64,000 nt of DNA, from the NCBI GenBank assembly GCA_965207225.1, contig CBDBLV010000005.1:96001-160000 (forward strand), written 5' to 3'. Positions within the stretch are counted from its first letter, which is position 1, and every line of letters starts with the position of its first letter. Below the pieces are notes generated by a model. It was not told the DNA's origin, made no database searches, and saw nothing but the letters and a program-made list of their open reading frames with translations. The stretch comes from Dehalococcoidia bacterium (lineage in GTDB: Bacteria > Chloroflexota > Dehalococcoidia > Plut-88900). Shown here piece after piece: positions 6,832 to 36,136 of the stretch. The translations under genes and the position numbers were made by a program.

Positions 6832-7430
6832 ATGCACGGGGTGGAGATTACGGCTTGATGACCAAGCTGAAGAGGCCTTCGCTTTGGGCATTCATCGGCT
6901 TTCTGGTGGTCACGGCTATCGTGGCGATCGTGGCGGTGGTGAGCGGGGACTTCGGGGATTTCGAAGCCAAGGTGCTGATAACGAGCCTGATCATCTCCGG
7001 CGCGAGCGTGTGCGTGATGGCCTACGCCATCTTTGCCGAGAGGAGCGGCCGGGTGAGGGTAGGCCAGGTCGGGGTGGCGCTTACAGTCGTGGCGGCGGGG
7101 CTGCTGCTGGTGGGCATGTGGTCCGAGAGGGGCGAGGATGAGTTCTGGAAGGCGACCTTGACCTTGTTGATTCTCGCGGTTGGGCTGGCCTACGCCCTGC
7201 TCCTGCTGCTGCCCGATCTCAAGGGCAAGCAGAGATGGGTTCACACAACCTCCTCGGTCTCGATAGGGGCGCTGGCGGCCATGATGATACTTGCCATCTG
7301 GGTGGAGTTTTCCGAGGGCTGGTACATCCGCCTATTAGCGGTGGTTGCGATACTGGTCGCCCTGCAGACGCTGATAATCCCGGTGTTGATGTGGCTACGC
7401 AAGATGTCGGAGCGGGAGGGTGGAGGCTAG
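6828..7430 (+). CDS. Hypothetical membrane protein (~6 TM)
   Basis: Six hydrophobic segments; ATGA overlap with the upstream gene. Confidence 0.7.
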
Positions 7431-8467
7431 AAGAGCTCGCCGTCGCCGCCGTTGAGGGATGGGGGGATGGGGAGTTGGGGGAGCTCGGCTTTTTCGCGGA
7501 TGCGGTTTTCGAGGGAGAAGGCCATTTCGGGATTGCTCCGGAGGTACTCCTTGGCGTTCTCGCGACCCTGGCCCAGGCGGGTCTCGTCCCAGGAGTAGAA
7601 GGCGCCGCTTTTCCTGAGGATGCCGTACTCGACGCCGAGGTCCACTAGGTCTCCTTCGCGGCTGATGCCCCGGTTGAACATGATGTCGAACTCTGCGATG
7701 CGGAAGGGGGCGGCGACCTTGTTCTTGACGACCTTGGCCCGCACCCGGTTCCCGACCACGACCGACTGCTGCTTTATGGCTTCGATCCTTCGCAAGTCGA
7801 TGCGGACGGAGCTGTAGAACTTCAGGGCCCGACCGCCGGGGGTGACCTCCGGGTTGCCGAACATGATGCCGACCTTCTCCCGGAGCTGGTTGATGAAGAC
7901 GACGGCGCAGTGGGAGCGGCTGGTGGCGGCGGTGAGCTTGCGGAGGGCCTGGGACATGAGGCGTGCCTGGAGGCCGACATGGGTGTCGCCCATCTCGCCT
8001 TCGATCTCGGCGCGGGGTACGAGGGCGGCTACGGAGTCGATGACGACGATATCGACGGCGTTGGAGCGGATGAGGGCCTCGGCGATTTCGAGGGCCTGCT
8101 CGCCGGTGTCGGGTTGGGAGATGAGGAGGTCTTCGATTTTGATGCCGCAGTTGCCGGCGTAGGAGGGGTCGAGGGCGTGCTCGGCGTCAATGTAGGCAGC
8201 CATGCCGCCGTTGGCTTGGGCCTGGGCGATGAGGTGCTGGGCGAGGGTGGACTTGCCTGCGGACTCAGCGCCGAAGACCTCGATGATGCGGCCCTTAGGG
8301 ATGCCGCCGATGCCGAGGGCGATGTCGAGGCCGAGGGAGCCGGTAGGGATGGCTTCGACGGTGAGGGCTCGGGAAGCGTCGCCGAGGCGCATGATGGAGC
8401 CCTGGCCAAATTGCTTTTCTATGTGTCCAAGGGCCAGTTCGAGGGCTTTGGTTTTCTCGGTTGTCAT
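7427..8467 (-). CDS. recA: Recombinase RecA
   Basis: GAESAGKST Walker [31 protein letters not shown]. Start trimmed to MTTEK (8467). Confidence 0.98.
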
Positions 8468-8474
8468 GATTGGC

Positions 8475-8503
8475 ATGATAGCACAAATGGGGCGGGTATT
8501 TAA
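8475..8503 (-). promoter_or_regulatory. recA promoter (extended -10), probably leaderless transcript
   Basis: TTAAAT-N17-TATCAT with TG extension; the -10 ends 7 nt before the ATG and there is no SD. Confidence 0.55.
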
Positions 8504-8562
8504 TTGAACTTTGATTGAAGATTGATTGATCGTTGATTGAACTCGTAGCTGTTTTGATTGAA
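8500..8562. repeat. 11-bp-phased TTGATTGAA direct repeats (copy A)
   Basis: Units at 8500, 8511, 8522, 8533 and 8554; homologous to 32514-32554. Confidence 0.85.
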
Positions 8563-8596
8563 TGACGCCTGAACAGTCGGAGTGAGGAAAACCCAT

Positions 8597-8868
8597 CCCC
8601 AGATTCCTCGCGGGGCATCGGAATGACAGAGAGAAAGAGGGTAGGGTGGGGGAGCCGTACGAGACGAGTTGGCAAGGCGTGGGCCACCCTCCGCTCATAC
8701 TTCGAGAGCCTCAGCACGAGCGGCCCAGCACCCGGGGATGGATTCCGGCTCGGGGGCCGGAATGACGGCAAGTGGGGGGAAGGGTGAGTTGCGGGGTTGT
8801 GGGTGACTTTCTCGGAGGGATGGATTCCCCCCCGACTTCTCGGGGGCAGGCTTTCCTCGGGAATGACG
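8597..8868. repeat. Cluster of REP-like palindromes (GATTCC...GGAATGAC)
   Basis: 33-bp CCCCAGATTCCTCGCGGGGCATCGGAATGACAG is identical at 8597, 32591 and 33701; related units near 8733 and 8818. Confidence 0.8.
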
Positions 8869-8899
8869 ATATAAAGAGCGGGGATGATGGTGGGGGAGG

Positions 8900-9563
8900 T
8901 CGGGTTGTTCGGTTGTGGGGTCTGGGTTTGCATTTTGGTCTGTCTGTTGGGTTTTGGGTGGGCGATGGAAGGTCCGGGACTCTCACGCAGGATCTCTTTG
9001 GCACCTACGCCGACGCTTGTGGCATCGGCGGCTGTCCTGCCATTCCCTACACGCATGCCTTGGGAGACTTGCCGGTGTCGAGGGCGTCTCTGCGCGGGGC
9101 CTTCTGTTCTCCGCATCAACGCTCGACCGCTATGCGGAGCAGCATTCGACTCGAAGCCGTCACGGGGGAACTGTGTCCTCCGATGGCGGCAATTATGGAG
9201 CCGCGTAGGGGCTCTAGGGCCCTAATCCCGGTAACGCCGGGCCGTACACTTTCGCGGGCAAGTCAATGCCAGCGACATAGGCGTCCCAAGATAGGGAGCA
9301 CCGATTCGGCTGGGCCCCTGGAAGGGGGTGTGCCGCTTAGAGCTGATGGACCTTCCATCGCCTGGATGGATGGGGAAGGGGCACGGGACCCGTAGTGAGG
9401 GGATTACGTTCCTGGCTTGTGCCTCGGGCCTGCGCGAGGGCCGTTGGTATTGGCCAGGGCGTTTAGTTCCCCGATTGCTCGGGGACGATGCCTCTGGTCG
9501 GGTCTCGGGGGGTTTCCCCGGGTTTTTGGTTCCTCCTTCGATTATCAGATATTTGTTCGATCG
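8900..9563 (-). ncRNA. Candidate large structured ncRNA / long leader (copy A)
   Basis: Own promoter; 15-bp long-range helix 8961-8975/9348-9362; covarying stems versus copy B; no credible ORF. Confidence 0.6.
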
Positions 9564-9569
9564 CAGGGT

Positions 9570-9598
9570 ATGATAGTACAGTCGGACAGGTGTGTCAA
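9570..9598 (-). promoter_or_regulatory. Near-consensus sigma70 promoter of the candidate ncRNA (copy A)
   Basis: TTGACA-N17-TATCAT; conserved in copy B. Confidence 0.8.
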
Positions 9599-9662
9599 GA
9601 GCAAATGTCCCATTTTTGGGGGGAGATGACGGGGTTGGCGGGGAGGGCGGGGAGGTTGCAGG

Positions 9663-10037
9663 TTAGCAGGTTCCGTTGGTGCGATGCCTGCCGAGCGCGT
9701 TTATCAATTCCTCCGCGCCACTGAGACCCGCATCGACCATCTCCCTTGTCCAACCGCCTTCGTAGAAGTTCTGGTGCAATCCCTGCACCAAGCCCAGCAG
9801 CTCGACGTAGCGCGATGCAGGGGGAGGGTTGCCGAGGATCAGCGCGGCATTCCTAAGAACCTTGCCGTGATGGTTGTGTTCCCACCCGCGCTCCTCCGAT
9901 ATGGCCTTGATATAGTGCGCAACGGCACCCCATGCCTTTTCAGAGGACTGAGCCAGGTCACCGCGATTGAACTCTTCCCGCGCCTGGGACAGGAACCTGC
10001 GGCTGGTCTCTTCGTGGTATTCGGTGGTGGTGACCAT
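9663..10037 (-). CDS. PaREP1/HEPN-like protein
   Basis: AREEFNRGDLAQSSEKAWGA and LHQNFYE motifs. Confidence 0.7.
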   Translation of the reverse strand: MVTTTEYHEETSRRFLSQAREEFNRGDLAQSSEKAWGAVAHYIKAISEERGWEHNHHGKVLRNAALILGNPPPASRYVELLGLVQGLHQNFYEGGWTREMVDAGLSGAEELINALGRHRTNGTC

Positions 10038-10203
10038 ATTCGGACTCTTCTGCATCTCTGGGTTATGGGATGTGATACACATTATAGCCTACGCTTGCTA
10101 GTCAAGCTCTGGCCGAGGGGTTTGCGAGCCGGGCGGGGTCCGATAGGATGTGGGACCATTTTTTGACCGGCCTCGGAGGACGGGGCTGGGGAGGGAGTAG
10201 TCA

Positions 10204-10497
10204 ATGGGGCTGGATGTCTGGGTGGTGAAGATGGAGCATGTGGATTCGCCGACGGGGTTGCTGAAAGACTTCCTGTTTGACTTAACAGAAAATCTCGATT
10301 GGGGCTATGAGGGGTGGGGTGGGGGATGGGAGGGGAACGCCTTTATTGAAGTATTGAAAGAGGACTTGGGAGGTAGAGCGTGGGACTATGCGTCAGAGAA
10401 GCGGCTTTCGCAGGAAGACAGGACATATCTGCTGTCGTGGGTTGAAAACCTGCCCTGGAACCCGGGAGACGATCTTACGCTGACGTTGAATTGGTGA
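10204..10497 (+). CDS. Hypothetical protein
   Basis: GGGAG RBS before ATG; acidic 97-aa ORF. Confidence 0.6.
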   Translation: MGLDVWVVKMEHVDSPTGLLKDFLFDLTENLDWGYEGWGGGWEGNAFIEVLKEDLGGRAWDYASEKRLSQEDRTYLLSWVENLPWNPGDDLTLTLNW

Positions 10498-10585
10498 GGG
10501 TTGAATCGTTCATTACATTGAAGGTGTGCTGTACCACATGCCTTAGTGCCGGTGAGAAGTCAAAAAGCATAGGGAGGGAAACTCC

Positions 10586-11620
10586 GTGGAAATTAGCCCA
10601 CATGATTATTTGGTGAATGAACTTGGGCGCAAATATCCATTGCCGCCTCGCACCTGCGTGTATTGTGAAATGACCATTGCGTTTCCTGAGGGGAATGCGG
10701 CAACTGAAAGATCGGTTGACTCTTTTCGACCCGATATCTCAATACGAAGCCAAGGTAATCTGATCGCGGTAATCGAAGTCATCGACAAGCATCCACCTGA
10801 TGAAGCTAAACTGTCGGCCCAGGAGAAGCTTCCCGACGCCTATTATTTCCATGTAAATGGGCATTTCTGGTGCACTCCTTGGTGTTGGAAGAACCAAGAC
10901 AATCCTCGCCTCTGCCCGATGCCGGTCTGTGAAGCCTGTGGCACATTAATCTACACTGTAGGATTTGGGACTCACGGTTTGGTGGATTGGGAGAGTCCAG
11001 GCGGAGAGTTGTGTCTCGAATGTGCCGCTCGAATATCCGACGGCCAGTGGAGAAGTCCCGGCGAATTAGCCTTAGGGGACCCAGAAGACAGGTTGCCAGA
11101 TTCAGATGCAACACCGGTTGAACTTTTCTTGTCATTTTCTGATGCTGATTTCTGGGCAATGGTCTGGACTAAACGCACCGCGACCTTGACACAAGCACGG
11201 ACGCCTGAAACTGAAACAGCCGCTAGATTGGATTTGGTGGAAGCGGCGTTCGAAAGTGGTGACTGGAACAGCGGGCAAAGGCTACTTCAGCCCATTGGTG
11301 CACCTGCCTGGGACAGGTCGGCTGAGGGCCCAATCTTGTTTGCCTGGGAACATGAAAATTGCGTGCGGACAGCGATGGCTTGGCGTAAGTTACGTGCATA
11401 CAGATTGCAATGTCTCCCGATGTCCATTCAAGTTTGCATTCGGTCACGACCTGCACTAGACAATGTAGTGACAGAGGTTGGACAAATCGTTATCACACAT
11501 AGGGGCTTCCCCGATGGGAGATACACAGCCTGTGGAATAGATCGGCAAAGAAACCGCGGTTTCTTAAGAACTTCCATGGATGGAGAGCCGACATGTCCCG
11601 AATGTAGACTCTTGAGTTGA
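10586..11620 (+). CDS. Hypothetical Cys-rich protein with a putative PD-(D/E)XK (CoiA-like) motif
   Basis: RPDISI...IEVIDKH motif and several CxxC pairs; lower GC. Confidence 0.55.
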   Translation: MEISPHDYLVNELGRKYPLPPRTCVYCEMTIAFPEGNAATERSVDSFRPDISIRSQGNLIAVIEVIDKHPPDEAKLSAQEKLPDAYYFHVNGHFWCTPWCWKNQDNPRLCPMPVCEACGTLIYTVGFGTHGLVDWESPGGELCLECAARISDGQWRSPGELALGDPEDRLPDSDATPVELFLSFSDADFWAMVWTKRTATLTQARTPETETAARLDLVEAAFESGDWNSGQRLLQPIGAPAWDRSAEGPILFAWEHENCVRTAMAWRKLRAYRLQCLPMSIQVCIRSRPALDNVVTEVGQIVITHRGFPDGRYTACGIDRQRNRGFLRTSMDGEPTCPECRLLS

Positions 11621-11913
11621 GAATTGAGGGCTGCTAATTCCAAGAGCTACTGACGGTCATTGGCAACTAACTCACCCACCCCAACCATATAAGTTAACAT
11701 GGAGGCCCTGCTATCCTCCGTACATGATCACGCAGTGATTCGTTGATGTCCGCTAGAAACCCCTTCCCCTTGCGAGCGTTGGCCTTGAATCAGGCTATGA
11801 TGTCAGCATCCCGCTTCACTGTAATCCGCCGCTTCACAGGCAGGTAGAAGACACCTAGCCGGAAGTTGGGGATGGTGGGGAGAGGCGTTACAGTCCATCA
11901 CGCGCCACCCCCA

Positions 11914-29292: not shown

Positions 29293-32425
<3,133 letters not shown>

Positions 32426-32513: not shown

Positions 32514-32554
32514 TTGATTGAACATTGATTGAACTCGTGGCTGTTTTGATTGAA
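32514..32554. repeat. 11-bp-phased TTGATTGAA repeats (copy B)
   Basis: Units at 32514, 32525 and 32546. Confidence 0.85.
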
Positions 32555-32754
32555 TGACGCCTGGAGGGATTGCATGGGAGGGAAACACCACCCCAGATTC
32601 CTCGCGGGGCATCGGAATGACAGTGTGAAGGGCATTGGTTGGTGGTTGCAGCCCCGCACGCCGGGGAGGGGACACCACCCCGTTCCGCTCTTGAGACCCT
32701 TCGACTCCGCTCAGGGCGAGCGGAACCCCACCCATGGATTCCGGCTCGGGCGTG

Positions 32755-33438
32755 GGGTTGTTTGGTTGTGGGGTCTGGGTTTTCATGTTGTTCTGGCTGT
32801 TGGGTTTTGGGTCGGCGATGGAAGGTCCGGGACTCTGGTGCAGGATGACTATGACACCTACGCCGACGCTGGCAGCATCGGCGGTGTCCTGCCGTATCCC
32901 CACTCATGCCATTGGGGACTTGCCGGTGTCGAGGGCGTCCCTGGGTGGGGCATTCCGTCCTGCATCAGCGCTCGACCGCTGCGCAGGACAGCATTCGGCT
33001 CGAACCGTCATGGGCGGAACGGAATCCGCCGATAGTGACGGCAGTGGAGCCGCGTAGGGGCTCTAGGGCCCTAATCCCGGAAGCGCCGGGCCGTAGAATT
33101 TCGCCGACGAGTCAATGCCAGCGACATAGGCGTCCCAATACAGGGAGCACCGATTCGGCAGAGGCCCCTGGAAAGGGGTGTACCGCGTAGAGCAGATGGA
33201 CCTTCCATCGCCTGGGATCAGGGAAGGGGCACGGGACCCGTGGTGAGGGGGTGACGCTCTTGGCTTGGGCCTCGGGCCTGCGCGAGAGCCTTTGGGGTGG
33301 GCTGGGGCGTTGAGTCCCCCGACCCCCGACTGCTCGGGGGCAGGCTTTCTCGGGGGCGGTGCCTTGGGTCGGGTCTCGGGGGCTTCCCCGGGTTTTTGGT
33401 TCCTCCTTTGATGATGTGAGTTAGTGTTCGATCGGACG
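32755..33438 (-). ncRNA. Candidate large structured ncRNA / long leader (copy B)
   Basis: 15-bp helix 32814-32828/33198-33212; colinear with 8900-9563, with compensatory changes. Confidence 0.6.
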
Positions 33439-33444
33439 GAGGAT

Positions 33445-33473
33445 ATGATAGTACGGTCGGACAGGTGTGTCAA
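33445..33473 (-). promoter_or_regulatory. Near-consensus sigma70 promoter of the candidate ncRNA (copy B)
   Basis: TTGACA-N17-TATCAT. Confidence 0.8.
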
Positions 33474-33556
33474 GAGCAAATGTGCGGCTTTGGGGGGGAA
33501 TATCTGAACTGTGATTCGTGGGATTGATGGATTGGTCTGATTTGTTGGGGGGAGGG

Positions 33557-34085: not shown

Positions 34086-34162
34086 GGGCGGTTAGCTCAG
34101 TTGGTGAGAGCGCCTGCTTCACACGCAGGAGGTCGCTGGTTCGAGTCCAGCATCGCCCACCA
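34086..34162 (+). tRNA. tRNA-Val(CAC)
   Basis: Cloverleaf; CCTGC-TTCACAC-GCAGG anticodon arm; GGTTCGAGTCC; CCA end. Confidence 0.97.
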
Positions 34163-34200
34163 TGAGAGCGGGAGGAGCCGGGCCCCGGGTGGGTGCATAG

Positions 34201-34287
34201 GCCGAAGTGGCGGAACGGCAGACGCGCTGCGTTCAGGGCGCAGTGTCCCTTGAGGACGTGTGGGTTCAAATCCCACCTTCGGCACCA
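34201..34287 (+). tRNA. tRNA-Leu(CAG)
   Basis: GCCGAAG/CTTCGGC acceptor stem, long variable arm, CTGCG-TTCAGGG-CGCAG, CCA end. Confidence 0.97.
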
Positions 34288-34327
34288 ATACTTGAGATTA
34301 CGGCTATAATCTGTTCCTGGCGATGAA

Positions 34328-34404
34328 GCGCTTGTAGCTCAGATGGATAGAGCGCGGCCCTGCGGAGGCCGAGGTCGTGGGTTCGAGCCCCGCCAAGCGC
34401 GCCA
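34328..34404 (+). tRNA. tRNA-Arg(GCG)
   Basis: GCGCTTG/CAAGCGC acceptor stem, CGGCC-CTGCGGA-GGCCG, CCA end. Confidence 0.95.
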
Positions 34405-36081
34405 GACTTTTCTAATTCTCGGGAGTGGGGCGGTTAGCTCAGTTGGTGAGAGCGCTTGCCTTACAAGCAAGAGGTCACTGGTTCGAGTCCAGTACCGCCC
34501 ACCAGCGACTCCCATACTGCGAACTCCCCTGCCCAGGGCGACCTCCGCCAGGTCTGCCCCGCCTATGGGAGAGTCCTCCGGGGTAGGGATTGAGTAGTGG
34601 ATCGTCGCCCTGCCGGGCCTGACCTCGATCTCGTTGACGAAGGACCGGATGAAGGCCCGCGACTCGGTAATCTCGCTCTCCCTTAGGAACCTGCTCATGT
34701 CCAGGGCGAAGGCCGCTATGGTTTCCACCTTGTCCAGGGTCACCCTGCGCTTCGACAGCATGGCCCTGGCATCCTCGGCGGCGGCCTCCAGCTTCTCCTT
34801 GCGCTCCCGGTGCTCCTTGATGCGGTCCGTGGCGTCGGACATCTCGATCTCGGTGGTCTCGATGACCTGCCAGATGCGCCCCAGCCGCCGCTTCACCTCC
34901 TCCAGCTCCTCCTCGATGACCTTCAGCCGCTGGCGCTGCTCCCTGGCCACCCCGTCCATCTCCTCGTCCACGATCTTGACCAGTTCGGTGATGTTGGACT
35001 CGGTGAGGATGTTGTCCCGGATGTTTTCAACTATCAGGCCCTCGAACCGCTTGGCGTTGAGCCTGGGGGTGGTGCAGGTCCCGCTGCCCTTCTTGAGCAG
35101 GGAGTGGCAGACGTAGTAGGTGTACTTGCCGCCCTTGGCCTCGGCGGCGGTGAGGGCCTTCCTGCACCTCTGGCACTTGACCAGCCCGCTGAGCAGGTAG
35201 GGGCTGGAGGCCCGGCGGGGGTGGACGGCCTTGGGCGCTCGTGAGCGCAGCAGCCGTCTCACCTGGCGGTACTTGCTCTTGGAGATCAGGGCGGGGAACG
35301 CCTTCTCCACCCGCACCGGCTCCGCGCCGTCCCTGGCCTTGGTTCCCCACACCAGAACCCCCGTATAGGCTTCGTTGGTGAGCATGGTGTGGACGGCGCT
35401 CTTGAGCCACTGCTTGCCCCTGGGAGAGGGAACGCCCTCGGCGTTGAGGGTCTTGGTGATGTCCAGGGAGCTATGGCCCTTCAGCGCCATGTCGAAGACG
35501 CGCTTGACCACGGCGTCGGCGGGCGGGTCGGGCTCCAGCTTGGGGCGCTTCTTGGCCCCGTCCTGGACGTAGACCTTGCGGTAGCCGTAGGGGGCGAAGG
35601 TGGCGACCCAGAAGCCTCTCGACGCCGCCTCCCGCATTCCACGGGAGACCTCCTCTGCAAGATTGGCGCTGTAGAACTCGTCCACCGACTCGATGATGGC
35701 CTCCATGAGCTTGCCGGTGGGGGAGTCGTCGGCGTGCTCGGTGATGGAGGTGACGCGGATGCCCCTGCGTCTGAGCATGGACTTGAAGGCGACGGCGTGC
35801 TCCCGCTTGCGGGTGAATCTCGAGAATTTCCAGACCAAGATTTCCTGGAACGGGGCCTCGGGCTTGCCCGCCTCGTCCAGCATCTTCTGGAACTGGGGAC
35901 GGTCGGCGATGCGGCCACTCTCGGCTTCGTCCACGTACTCCCTTGCCACGACGTAGCCGTTCTTCTGGGCGTAGTCCCTGAGCGCCCGCATCTGGGCGGC
36001 CACGGACAGGTCCACGTCCTGGCGGTCGCTGGAGACCCTGGCGTAGAGGGCGACGGGTATCAACTCGGTTCGTTCACTCAT
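34339..36081 (-). CDS. Large serine recombinase/integrase
   Basis: ALYARVSS...Q, WKFSRFTR, PYGY, recombinase domain, LLSGLVKCQRC zinc ribbon, coiled coil; AAGGAG RBS before ATG 36081. Confidence 0.93.
   Translation of the reverse strand: MSERTELIPVALYARVSSDRQDVDLSVAAQMRALRDYAQKNGYVVAREYVDEAESGRIADRPQFQKMLDEAGKPEAPFQEILVWKFSRFTRKREHAVAFKSMLRRRGIRVTSITEHADDSPTGKLMEAIIESVDEFYSANLAEEVSRGMREAASRGFWVATFAPYGYRKVYVQDGAKKRPKLEPDPPADAVVKRVFDMALKGHSSLDITKTLNAEGVPSPRGKQWLKSAVHTMLTNEAYTGVLVWGTKARDGAEPVRVEKAFPALISKSKYRQVRRLLRSRAPKAVHPRRASSPYLLSGLVKCQRCRKALTAAEAKGGKYTYYVCHSLLKKGSGTCTTPRLNAKRFEGLIVENIRDNILTESNITELVKIVDEEMDGVAREQRQRLKVIEEELEEVKRRLGRIWQVIETTEIEMSDATDRIKEHRERKEKLEAAAEDARAMLSKRRVTLDKVETIAAFALDMSRFLRESEITESRAFIRSFVNEIEVRPGRATIHYSIPTPEDSPIGGADLAEVALGRGVRSMGVAGGRYWTRTSDLLLVRQALSPTELTAPLPRIRKVWRAWRGSNPRPRPPQGRALSI
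34428..34504 (+). tRNA. tRNA-Val(TAC); probable integration site
   Basis: GGGCGGT/ACCGCCC acceptor stem, CTTGC-CTTACAA-GCAAG, CCA end. Confidence 0.97.
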
Positions 36082-36136
36082 TGGTTTCTCCTTGCTATCG
36101 ATCATACTATTCGGCGTCTCGAAGAGCAGAGGCTCC

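Follow-up and report, generated by a model that had tools for sequence, protein, structure and literature searches.

The window analysed here is a stretch of 64,000 nucleotides (nt) from the genome of a Dehalococcoidia bacterium (assembly GCA_965207225.1, contig CBDBLV010000005.1, positions 96,001 to 160,000), corresponding to 96–160 kb of contig C5 of the own genome, G000. It carries two related elements on the minus strand, copy A lying 5′ of recA and copy B 5′ of gyrB. An original prediction, made by a model from the letters alone, had taken them for two copies of a large structured non-coding RNA gene with its own promoter. The homology it saw between 8900–9600 and 32755–33480 holds: on the minus strand, 8880–9620 and 32735–33500 align colinearly over 775 columns with a mean column identity of 89%. 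The notion of a two-copy gene does not, since A and B represent a single subtype, with 10 of the 56 loci, within a modular repeat family scattered over the genome. This family is probably a lineage-specific set of genes for promoter-driven, structured non-coding RNAs that derive from coding sequence, with about 56 units per genome. Its hosts are uncultured and represented by metagenome-assembled genomes (MAGs) of a single genus.

Both copies consist of a promoter, a 5′ module, a core closed by an inverted repeat, and a 3′ tail (Table 1). The promoter of copy A is the single sigma-70-type site found by a promoter scan of 8400–9900, with 11 of 12 matches, compared with a mean of 0.4 sites in shuffled sequence; copy B carries the same hexamers, so that the promoters of the original prediction are recovered in both. 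The 5′ module of copy A contains a Shine–Dalgarno (SD)-like motif, an A-tract with hairpin, small nested repeats as an optional component, and, immediately 5′ of the closing helix, a CACGGGUCCCGUG hairpin; that of copy B has an additional 23-nt repeat piece. The closing repeat is a perfect 15-nt inverted repeat, the arms of which are 372 nt apart in copy A and 369 nt apart in copy B, in line with the perfect 15-bp helix around about 370 nt that had been proposed. As judged by Pfam, the gene that follows copy A downstream, in the same orientation, is indeed recA, and there is no recognisable terminator between copies A and B and their downstream genes recA and gyrB.

Table 1. Positions of the two elements, their parts, and associated genes (window coordinates unless a contig is named)
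Feature	Position	Strand	Details
Copy A, whole unit	8902–9620	minus	
Copy A, promoter	9570–9598	minus	−35 TTGACA 9598–9593; spacer 17; −10 TATCAT 9575–9570; predicted start near 9563
Copy A, 5′ module	9363–9569	minus	promoter-type-specific leader first
Copy A, SD-like motif in 5′ module	9538–9529	minus	AAGGAGGAAC
Copy A, A-tract and small G/C hairpin in 5′ module	9528–9504	minus	
Copy A, core (type II)	8961–9362	minus	14 predicted helices
Copy A, closing-helix arms	9362–9348; 8975–8961	minus	5′ arm; 3′ arm of the RNA
Copy A, complementary hairpin-loop hexamers	9077–9127	minus	GUCGAG 9127–9122; CUCGAC 9082–9077
Copy A, 3′ tail	8902–8960	minus	C/A-rich, G-poor; terminates in CCCCACAACCGAACAACCC
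Copy B, whole unit	32755–33495	minus	
Copy B, promoter	33445–33473	minus	−35 TTGACA 33473–33468; spacer 17; −10 TATCAT 33450–33445
Copy B, 5′ module	33213–33444	minus	SD-like AAGGAGGAAC at 33408–33399
Copy B, core (type II)	32814–33212	minus	closing arms 33212–33198 and 32828–32814
Copy B, tail	32755–32813	minus	C/A-rich
recA, next gene downstream of copy A	7427–8698	minus	Pfam RecA 4.9e-132
gyrB, next gene downstream of copy B	29897–32407	minus	Pfam DNA_gyraseB 1.9e-58, Toprim, HATPase_c
Large serine recombinase	34339–36105	minus	called open reading frame overlaps last tRNA genes
Parent gene, paralogue 1	L011:5270–6664		G000 C5:241269–242744
Parent gene, paralogue 2	L012:5188–6576		G000 C1:233552–235075

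In the own genome, BLAST yields 83 pieces of the family, and two rounds of nhmmer yield 69 pieces that merge into 58 loci: 56 elements and two stretches within intact genes of about 460 codons, the parent genes discussed below. On its own strand, an element starts with approximately 45 nt of common sequence preceding the −35, followed by the promoter and a short leader; then come AAGGAGGAAC, CAAAAACCC and a small hairpin, optional nested small repeats, the CACGGGUCCCGUG hairpin, and the 5′ arm GGCGAUGGAAGGUCC; the unit is completed by a core of 280–550 nt, then the 3′ arm and a tail rich in C and A. Units are 600–900 nt long; outside the closing repeat lie a conserved 5′ module of about 200–380 nt and a tail of about 60 nt, past which sequence conservation between loci ends. 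Of the 56 loci, 46 have the two arms of the closing repeat, which is conserved in sequence, beyond pairing alone. By a strict pattern, the promoter is recognisable in 41 of the 56 loci. These promoters are of three types (18, 11, and 12 loci), the third with a TG-extended −10; their spacers are unrelated while hexamers and spacing are identical, which is the pattern predicted by selection for promoter function. All 41 promoter-bearing loci feature a GGAGG 29–36 nt past the −10, and none of them has a start codon (ATG, GTG, or TTG) 3–12 nt after it; a coding reading of the SD-like motif was rejected on this ground. In the first 70 nt of 48 tails, the composition is 35% A, 41% C, 13% G, and 10% T. 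An intrinsic-terminator repeat unit, CCAGTAYTGAACTAGAGGC...GCCTCTGTTYTT, follows within 220 nt in 10 of the 56 loci, copies A and B not being among them.

About 10 core types occur in the own genome. Type I is represented by 14 copies of 308 nt that are on average 94% alike and by five longer variants, the type II cores of the A and B subtype are 82% alike, and the remaining types have one to five copies each. The make-up of the elements is mosaic: across 40 listed 5′ modules, promoter types, 5′ inserts, and cores are freely recombined. The surrounding intergenic DNA (8700–8900 and 32550–32750 in the window, and many other loci) is crowded with further small repeats, such as GTCATTCC...GGAATCC hairpins, and some of these are nested within the 5′ modules of elements.

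The fold of the core was derived from 31 type-II cores, 10 from the own genome and 21 from the eight other genomes of the genus, after removal of duplicate loci. The RNAalifold consensus features 80 pairs in 14 helices, and standard pairs fill 98.7% of its 2474 cells at a mean column identity of 79%. Both sides have changed in 12 pairs, compared with 5.8 ± 1.3 in 500 shuffles, none of which reaches 12; partners moved by one to three columns give one to six such pairs. The covariation score is 0.132 versus 0.097 in the shuffles (0/500). In a tree built from unpaired columns only, the pairs 302–326, 44–72, 185–240, and 249–285 switch state five to seven times with pairing retained. Between A and B themselves, the stem TCCGC/GCGGA becomes CCTGC/GCAGG, with two positions differing on both sides and pairing kept, and the module CUA(C/A)GCGG...(C/U)CGAAU, already noticed twice in each copy, corresponds in its family-wide form CUAnGCGGC...GnCGAAU to helices 3 and 7 of the consensus fold.

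The gyrB-site orthologues provide an independent test; they were added to the alignment with its columns unchanged. Those of genomes G007, G003, and G004, which are 70, 62, and 64% identical to copy B, form 79/80, 71/80, and 67/75 pairs and feature four, eight, and five compensatory pairs, respectively. Three more distant gyrB-site copies keep 48–55 pairs, one with a different core forms 37/66, and slid controls reach 36–40%. As judged by this conserved multi-helix fold with compensatory changes, the type-II cores would qualify as large structured non-coding RNAs, their transcription being predicted.

Two hairpin loops of the core carry the complementary hexamers GUCGAG and CUCGAC, for which a conserved pseudoknot had been proposed. 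The hexamers are present and unchanged in 30–31 of the 31 type-II copies, and the parent gene likewise contains both; at the gyrB site, orthologues carry CUCGGC, with pairing retained via U–G, or CUCGAA or CUCGCC, with five of six pairs. Conservation of the loops thus stands; because both hexamers are invariant, they provide no covariation for or against the pseudoknot itself. Pairing of the loops might occur within one molecule, as a pseudoknot, or between two molecules, as a kissing contact.

The strand of the RNA is best addressed through wobble pairs. The raw ratio of G–U to A–C is circular, with a G–U excess on either strand's own prediction, and hence only helices predicted on both strands were counted. 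These favour the minus strand, the strand read from the promoter, by 27:6 in type II (45 copies), 5:0 in type I, 9:4 in type Ib, and 5:1 in type III, which sums up to 46:11 for the four core types; three covarying pairs show nine G–U and no A–C intermediates. In one metatranscriptome run, seven contig pieces of 71–141 nt with 3–11 differences fall within 8942–9365, that is, the closed core. The contigs are unstranded, and depth is 32–137 on the core and 0 on the 5′ module at 9416–9559. Three runs not labelled RNA, one of them marked 'DNA?', cover the 5′ module as deeply as the core. The metatranscriptome contigs give a weak hint at the enclosed core being the stable species. In run X24, the recA side and 9848–11700 are without RNA cover, and no conclusion is based on this.

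No coding signal is found in the type-II cores, in agreement with the absence of a conserved long open reading frame (ORF) noticed at first. Variable columns are distributed over the codon phases as 94, 97, and 93 (p = 0.96); the three frames contain 6, 1, and 4 stops in copy A and 2, 2, and 5 in copy B, and all three are stopped in 25 of the 31 copies. A protein-coding or small-ORF cassette was rejected for type II since neither a kept frame nor periodicity is seen; other subtypes do keep a frame.

The cores descend from a protein-coding gene. They match the two parent genes in sense at nt ~825–1229, where the nuclease domain begins: copy A by itself with an expectation value (E) of 1.6e-24 in nhmmer, copy B with 76.7% identity over 60 nt in blastn (E 2.5e-8), and the profiles of core types I, Ib, II, V, and IX with E values of 1.9e-6 to 3.4e-26, the best of them over nt 825–1229. 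As judged by these matches, the core was copied in sense from a terminase-like gene, long ago. Of the large functional RNA originally proposed, the conserved fold, the promoter at a fixed end, and the lack of a coding signal stand; the core is not independent, being a copy from this gene. The two parent genes are 78% identical over 2.2 kb, two small upstream ORFs included.

From sequence and fold comparisons, the parent gene looks like a large-terminase gene. The matches of its protein to the PHROG large-terminase families are weak (7.5e-5 and 1.5e-4), and a portal gene adjoins one paralogue (SPP1_portal 2.7e-17; phrog_64 2.6e-30), so that a terminase match and a packaging neighbour, the combination looked for in a TerL gene, occur together. 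Of 17 homologues, nine contain Terminase_6C, the query protein itself being without a Pfam match, and all five matches at E ≤ 0.001 in a fold search of the Protein Data Bank (PDB) are large terminases. The model of the protein has a mean predicted local distance difference test score of 53.5 and is good only for residues ~250–410, the nuclease domain; a PDB sequence search, by single sequence and by profile, gave no useful match. The gene is present at full length in 33 of 41 genomes across the class, with 40–59% identity outside the genus, usually as a single gene per genome and in two to five copies in this genus; in the sources, its homologues are named only hypothetical proteins. The terminase–portal module may be a domesticated packaging system of the gene-transfer-agent type or a very widespread prophage.

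The parent genes of the genus share the fold of the elements. With the 80 pairs mapped by codon alignment, the six parent genes examined from the genus form 60–65 of 80 pairs (75–81%), and 15 orthologues from other genera form 42–57%, a sixteenth being aligned at 12 pairs only; slid controls give 36–48%. A misaligned row, L011:5741–6172, was excluded from all counts. The closing repeat occurs in the parent genes as GACGATGGA(A)GGTTCC and GGAACCTCCATCGTC, with one compensatory difference compared with the element version. It is present in 6/6 examined parent genes of the genus versus 0/16 of other genera, where the amino acids differ at both sites. Within the genus, either the fold evolved in the gene first and the elements came from it later, or the gene was converted by the elements. 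In either order of events, the structure within the coding region is, on this comparison of the genes, under selection.

Two elements, at C4:456528–456934 and C5:1617286–1617696 of the own genome, retain the frame of the parent with 64–70% amino-acid identity, and other members carry internal duplications of the coding segment. Taken by themselves, such members would suit a family of decaying fragments of duplicated terminase genes or of remnants of a short protein-coding cassette. That origin is highly improbable for the family as a whole: the type-II cores are stopped in all frames and lack periodicity, 98.7% of their pairs are kept, the fold persists at 62% identity, and pseudogenes would not keep promoters, scaffold, and compensatory changes across nine genomes. 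Frames open over 390–600 codons are found in members together with their repeat-rich surroundings, among others at C4:456249–457421, C5:1617003–1618475, C3:315299–316777, and C5:1307607–1309424 of the own genome; in some of these long-open members, it is the nuclease-domain segment of the terminase that is duplicated internally.

A DNA search finds the family in all eight other genomes of the genus and in none of three other searched genera of the same family; of 29 other families of the class, one has a match, which is marginal (E 5e-4). The 20-nt pattern of the closing arm occurs as 60 stretches in a collection of genomes of 185,579 species: 59 lie in eight Dehalococcoidia MAG assemblies, and the sixtieth lies in a Proteobacteria MAG with no element by hidden Markov model. 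No viral contig carries the pattern.

Upstream of gyrB, a promoter-bearing element is found in 9/9 genomes of the genus, and the element at this site is, on its presence throughout, as old as the genus. The recA site is occupied in three of the nine genomes, with promoter and core type different in each. Sites are therefore stable for long while whole elements or cores get replaced by other members. In all relatives, with or without an element, recA has its own extended −10 (TGTGCTATCAT) about 7 nt before the ATG, a distance that suggests a leaderless recA mRNA. The real start of recA is probably internal to the called ORF since orthologues match from residue 37–72 on. Tandem TTCAATCAA-type repeats lie upstream of recA in genomes G008, G007, G005, and G001 (L043–L046).

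Turnover of this kind would also be expected from a selfish non-autonomous repeat that spreads or homogenises as DNA and of which promoter and fold are by-products or copying aids, for example, through structure in single-stranded DNA. The original prediction had named the RNA core of a non-autonomous element as its second option, which may still apply. Consistent with such a repeat are the 56 dispersed loci with their free recombination of promoter types, 5′ inserts, and cores; the likeness of the 14 type-I cores, a sign of recent spreading or of gene conversion; the differing elements at the three filled recA sites; and the closing repeat, conserved in sequence like a recombination or binding site. 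Overall, it is an unlikely explanation. The long inverted repeat is internal and not terminal, and no direct repeat indicative of target-site duplication is evident at 34 listed junctions, where the element ends are not sharply defined; comparison of filled and empty sites (recA 3/9 and gyrB 9/9 filled) offered no clean empty site that could be aligned. Matches to the Y1 (HUH) transposase family PF01797 are absent from the own genome, which is 92.3% complete, while control genomes respond. No reverse-transcriptase gene lies near any examined copy; the four RVT_1 genes of the genome are found elsewhere (C2:158087–158773, C5:1548409–1549095, C5:1553608–1554405, and C5:1671488–1672288). In addition, the element at the gyrB site is retained in all nine genomes while its sequence has drifted to 53–70% identity with the fold preserved, the promoter hexamers are conserved under three unrelated spacers, and the wobble pairs are strand-asymmetric.

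The same observations led to the rejection of several named classes of mobile DNA. A miniature inverted-repeat or Correia-type transposon should feature terminal inverted repeats, and the only long inverted repeat here is internal; a REP/RAYT or IS200/IS605-derived palindrome should have a cognate Y1 transposase, and none is found in the 92.3% complete genome; and a retron should have a directly adjacent reverse-transcriptase gene, and none lies next to a copy examined. An inversion switch operating at the inverted repeats was rejected as well since no locus has its core inverted relative to the flanks and no strand-changing joints are listed. Two of the four reverse-transcriptase genes have identical scores and frames of 586 amino acids, which suggests a duplicated retroelement, possibly a group II intron.

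Several points weigh against reading the elements as promoter-driven RNA genes derived from the terminase-like gene. Most pairs of the fold are invariant, with 10 of the 14 pairs of the closing helix never varying, and the consensus structure was derived from the same sequences that were used for counting; moreover, the copies are recombining paralogues, and hence the shuffle control overstates significance. The RNA evidence consists of one run's contigs, which come from relatives, are unstranded, and have unmapped ends, and DNA carry-over may contribute to it. Core types III, IV, VI, VII, VIII, and X are without similarity to the parent gene, and source genes for them are not found in the own genome with one exception for type VI. 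This exception is a 74-nt match to the middle of the core at C3:216515–216588 (E 1.7e-13), which lies outside the family loci and is not a tRNA.

Strand is a further point of this kind. The type-II consensus energy is −94.3 compared with −91.4 on the opposite strand, which favours neither, and types I, Ib, and III fold better, with a lower consensus energy, on the opposite, G-rich strand. Also, the A-tract and hairpin that follow the SD-like motif read as an intrinsic terminator of the opposite strand (plus strand, hairpin at 9504–9522 and T-run), the complement of which is conserved in the 40 listed 5′ modules. The functional product might hence be a G/U-rich plus-strand RNA that ends at this terminator at 9504–9530, antisense to the promoter-driven strand. 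We consider this very unlikely: the scan finds no plus-strand promoter in 8400–9900, the sequence beyond the tail is unconserved and so provides no shared start, and the wobble pairs favour the minus strand. With the minus strand as the transcribed one, the A-tract and hairpin may form a hairpin near the 5′ end of the RNA or stop polymerases that transcribe in antisense.

The orientation of neighbouring genes is the remaining point. By crude ORF calls, 39 of 55 loci are followed within 1.3 kb by a gene in the same orientation, and 40 of 55 after correction for gyrB, which those calls had missed behind a spurious antisense ORF. This bias would be better explained by a role in cis, in which the element combines a strong, portable promoter and a long leader with structure to drive or tune the downstream gene, for example, by regulated Rho termination in the tail. 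Scanning of 38 downstream genes assigned a Pfam family to 33 and none to five; the families include UvrA, PNPase, RpoB, NusA, ribosomal protein S2, LeuS, and glutamyl/glutaminyl-tRNA synthetase, and further KatG-type peroxidase, FolD, RibF, MoaA, Lgt, and many catabolic enzymes. That many of them head housekeeping operons (those of UvrA, PNPase, RpoB, NusA, S2, LeuS, and glutamyl/glutaminyl-tRNA synthetase, besides RecA and GyrB) would suit a cis module, as would the G-poor, C-rich tail and the lack of a recognisable terminator between copies A and B and their genes. Yet the downstream genes have no common pathway and extend to amidohydrolases, CoA-transferases, luciferase-like oxidoreductases, peptidases, and others; 15 of the 55 loci are oriented the wrong way, the distance to the next gene ranges from 39 to 1174 nt, and 10 loci have an intrinsic terminator directly after the tail. 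At recA, six of nine genomes lack the element, and the gene retains its own proximal −10 in all relatives. On balance, the cis module is a rather unlikely account of the family. A riboswitch or cis-acting leader in the stricter sense was rejected given the 40/55 co-orientation, the mixed downstream functions, and the promoter of recA itself.

The family was compared with known RNAs using Rfam 15, the 4227 models of which include OLE, GOLLD, ROOL, raiA, HEARO, group I and II introns, RNase P, tmRNA, and 6S. At the gathering threshold, the whole window yields only four tRNAs (34086–34501), and ten loci comprising eight further copies and both parent genes yield no match. In E-value mode, copies A and B give chance-level matches only (E 0.28–5.7), with scores far below threshold. 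Neither copy thus belongs to a family covered by these models, in accordance with the original impression. At the level of listings and abstracts, full-text literature searches yielded no description of such an element.

The family resembles OLE, GOLLD and ROOL, raiA, and HEARO or omega RNA in being a non-coding, multi-helix RNA of several hundred nt with conserved loops, found comparatively. GOLLD and ROOL are phage-linked RNAs, and a phage connection exists here too in that the core descends from a phage-type packaging gene. The family differs from these large, ornate RNAs in four respects: a copy number of about 56 per genome, compared with one or few; a promoter, 5′ module, and tail for each copy around an exchangeable core; a core from a protein-coding sequence that shares the fold; and restriction to one genus, with no Rfam match. 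GOLLD, ROOL, and OLE are described as forming homo-oligomers (PMC12286853). By analogy, the invariant complementary loops of the present cores might, as a speculation, mediate homo-oligomers as well.

A second group for comparison is that of dispersed mosaic intergenic repeats such as the Correia elements of Neisseria, the pneumococcal BOX elements, REP/BIME, and ERIC, which form RNA stem-loops and in some cases carry promoters or RNase III sites. Compared by description, the family is like them dispersed, multicopy, modular, intergenic, and often located 5′ of genes. Its unit of 600–900 nt is five to seven times larger, its inverted repeat closes an internal domain of 280–550 nt with a complex fold and compensatory changes, and 41 of its 56 loci have a complete promoter, always at the same end. 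Because of the lacking Rfam match, the internal inverted repeat, and the own promoter, the family is placed neither with the ornate RNAs nor with the Correia, BOX, and BIME repeats.

Further partial likenesses exist. The msr–msd RNA of retrons is closed by the a1/a2 inverted repeat, and reRNA or omega RNA overlaps with or derives from the coding sequence of mobile elements; the present RNA is likewise closed by an inverted repeat and derived from coding sequence. It differs from retrons in having no adjacent reverse-transcriptase gene at the copies examined, none of the four being in the window, and from TnpB and IscB guide RNAs in matching neither the HEARO nor the IS605-orfB model of Rfam. 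In the primary rRNA transcript, RNase III processing stems flank 16S and 23S rRNA. Here too, a folded RNA is enclosed by a long stem formed by distant arms, the genome has a gene for RNase III (C4:260228–260614), and transcriptome contigs cover the enclosed part only; unlike in rRNA, cleavage at the stem is a prediction here, and the enclosed RNA has no known function.

For the family as promoter-driven RNA genes, the following mechanism is proposed. Each unit would be transcribed from its own sigma-70-type promoter, for A and B along the minus strand of the window. About 24 nt into the transcript, the perfect SD-like GGAGG without a start codon and the subsequent small hairpin would act as a 5′ stabiliser; a precedent is the STAB-SD of Bacillus mRNAs, a non-translating ribosome-binding stabiliser. 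The core of about 400 nt would fold into about 14 helices closed by a stem of 14+4 bp, and the C/A-rich, G-poor tail would provide a rut-like entry site for Rho, with an intrinsic terminator used instead at some loci. The closed core would be the stable product, excised at the long stem by a double-strand RNase, for which RNase III is a candidate. In trans, the core RNA would imitate, or compete with, the corresponding folded domain of the parent mRNAs, and read-through into a co-oriented downstream gene would be a side effect. Such a trans-mimic role is a guess, favoured since fold and closing stem recur in the parent mRNAs.

A wider version of this mechanism, which we regard as doubtful, would have one RNA domain exist in two forms: within the mRNAs of the two to five terminase-like genes and as about 56 free genes acting in trans on its readers. 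The free RNAs might then be decoys for a nuclease or regulator, self-assembling RNA particles held together by the GUCGAG and CUCGAC loops, or dispersed recognition marks for a domesticated, gene-transfer-agent-like terminase–portal packaging module. If true, a coding sequence would have turned into a regulatory RNA network controlling its own parent.

If transcribed as predicted, the elements would be large structured bacterial RNAs of a new class, with dozens of copies per genome, each with its own promoter, in which a fixed scaffold of promoter, SD-like stabiliser, closing stem, and C/A tail surrounds exchangeable cores. The origin of the RNA appears traceable from a protein-coding gene over frame-keeping intermediates to a purely structural RNA, with the parent gene reshaped to carry the fold; this would be a rare and datable example of a structured RNA born from coding sequence. 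The finding also points to an unstudied terminase–portal module conserved through the whole bacterial class.

Further features of the window surround the two copies. On the plus strand, a 344-codon ORF at 10586–11620 has no Pfam family and no match at E ≤ 1e-50 in the eight remaining genomes of the genus. This ORF is not recA and is probably strain-specific or no gene. Directly upstream of copy A, at 9663–10082 on the minus strand, lies a gene for a PaREP1/HEPN-domain protein of 139 amino acids, which may be a toxin–antitoxin or defence component. Beyond copy B, four tRNA genes (Val-CAC, Leu-CAG, Arg-GCG, and Val-TAC) adjoin the gene of a large serine recombinase of 588 amino acids, and this region of 34086–36105 may be the integration site of a mobile element.

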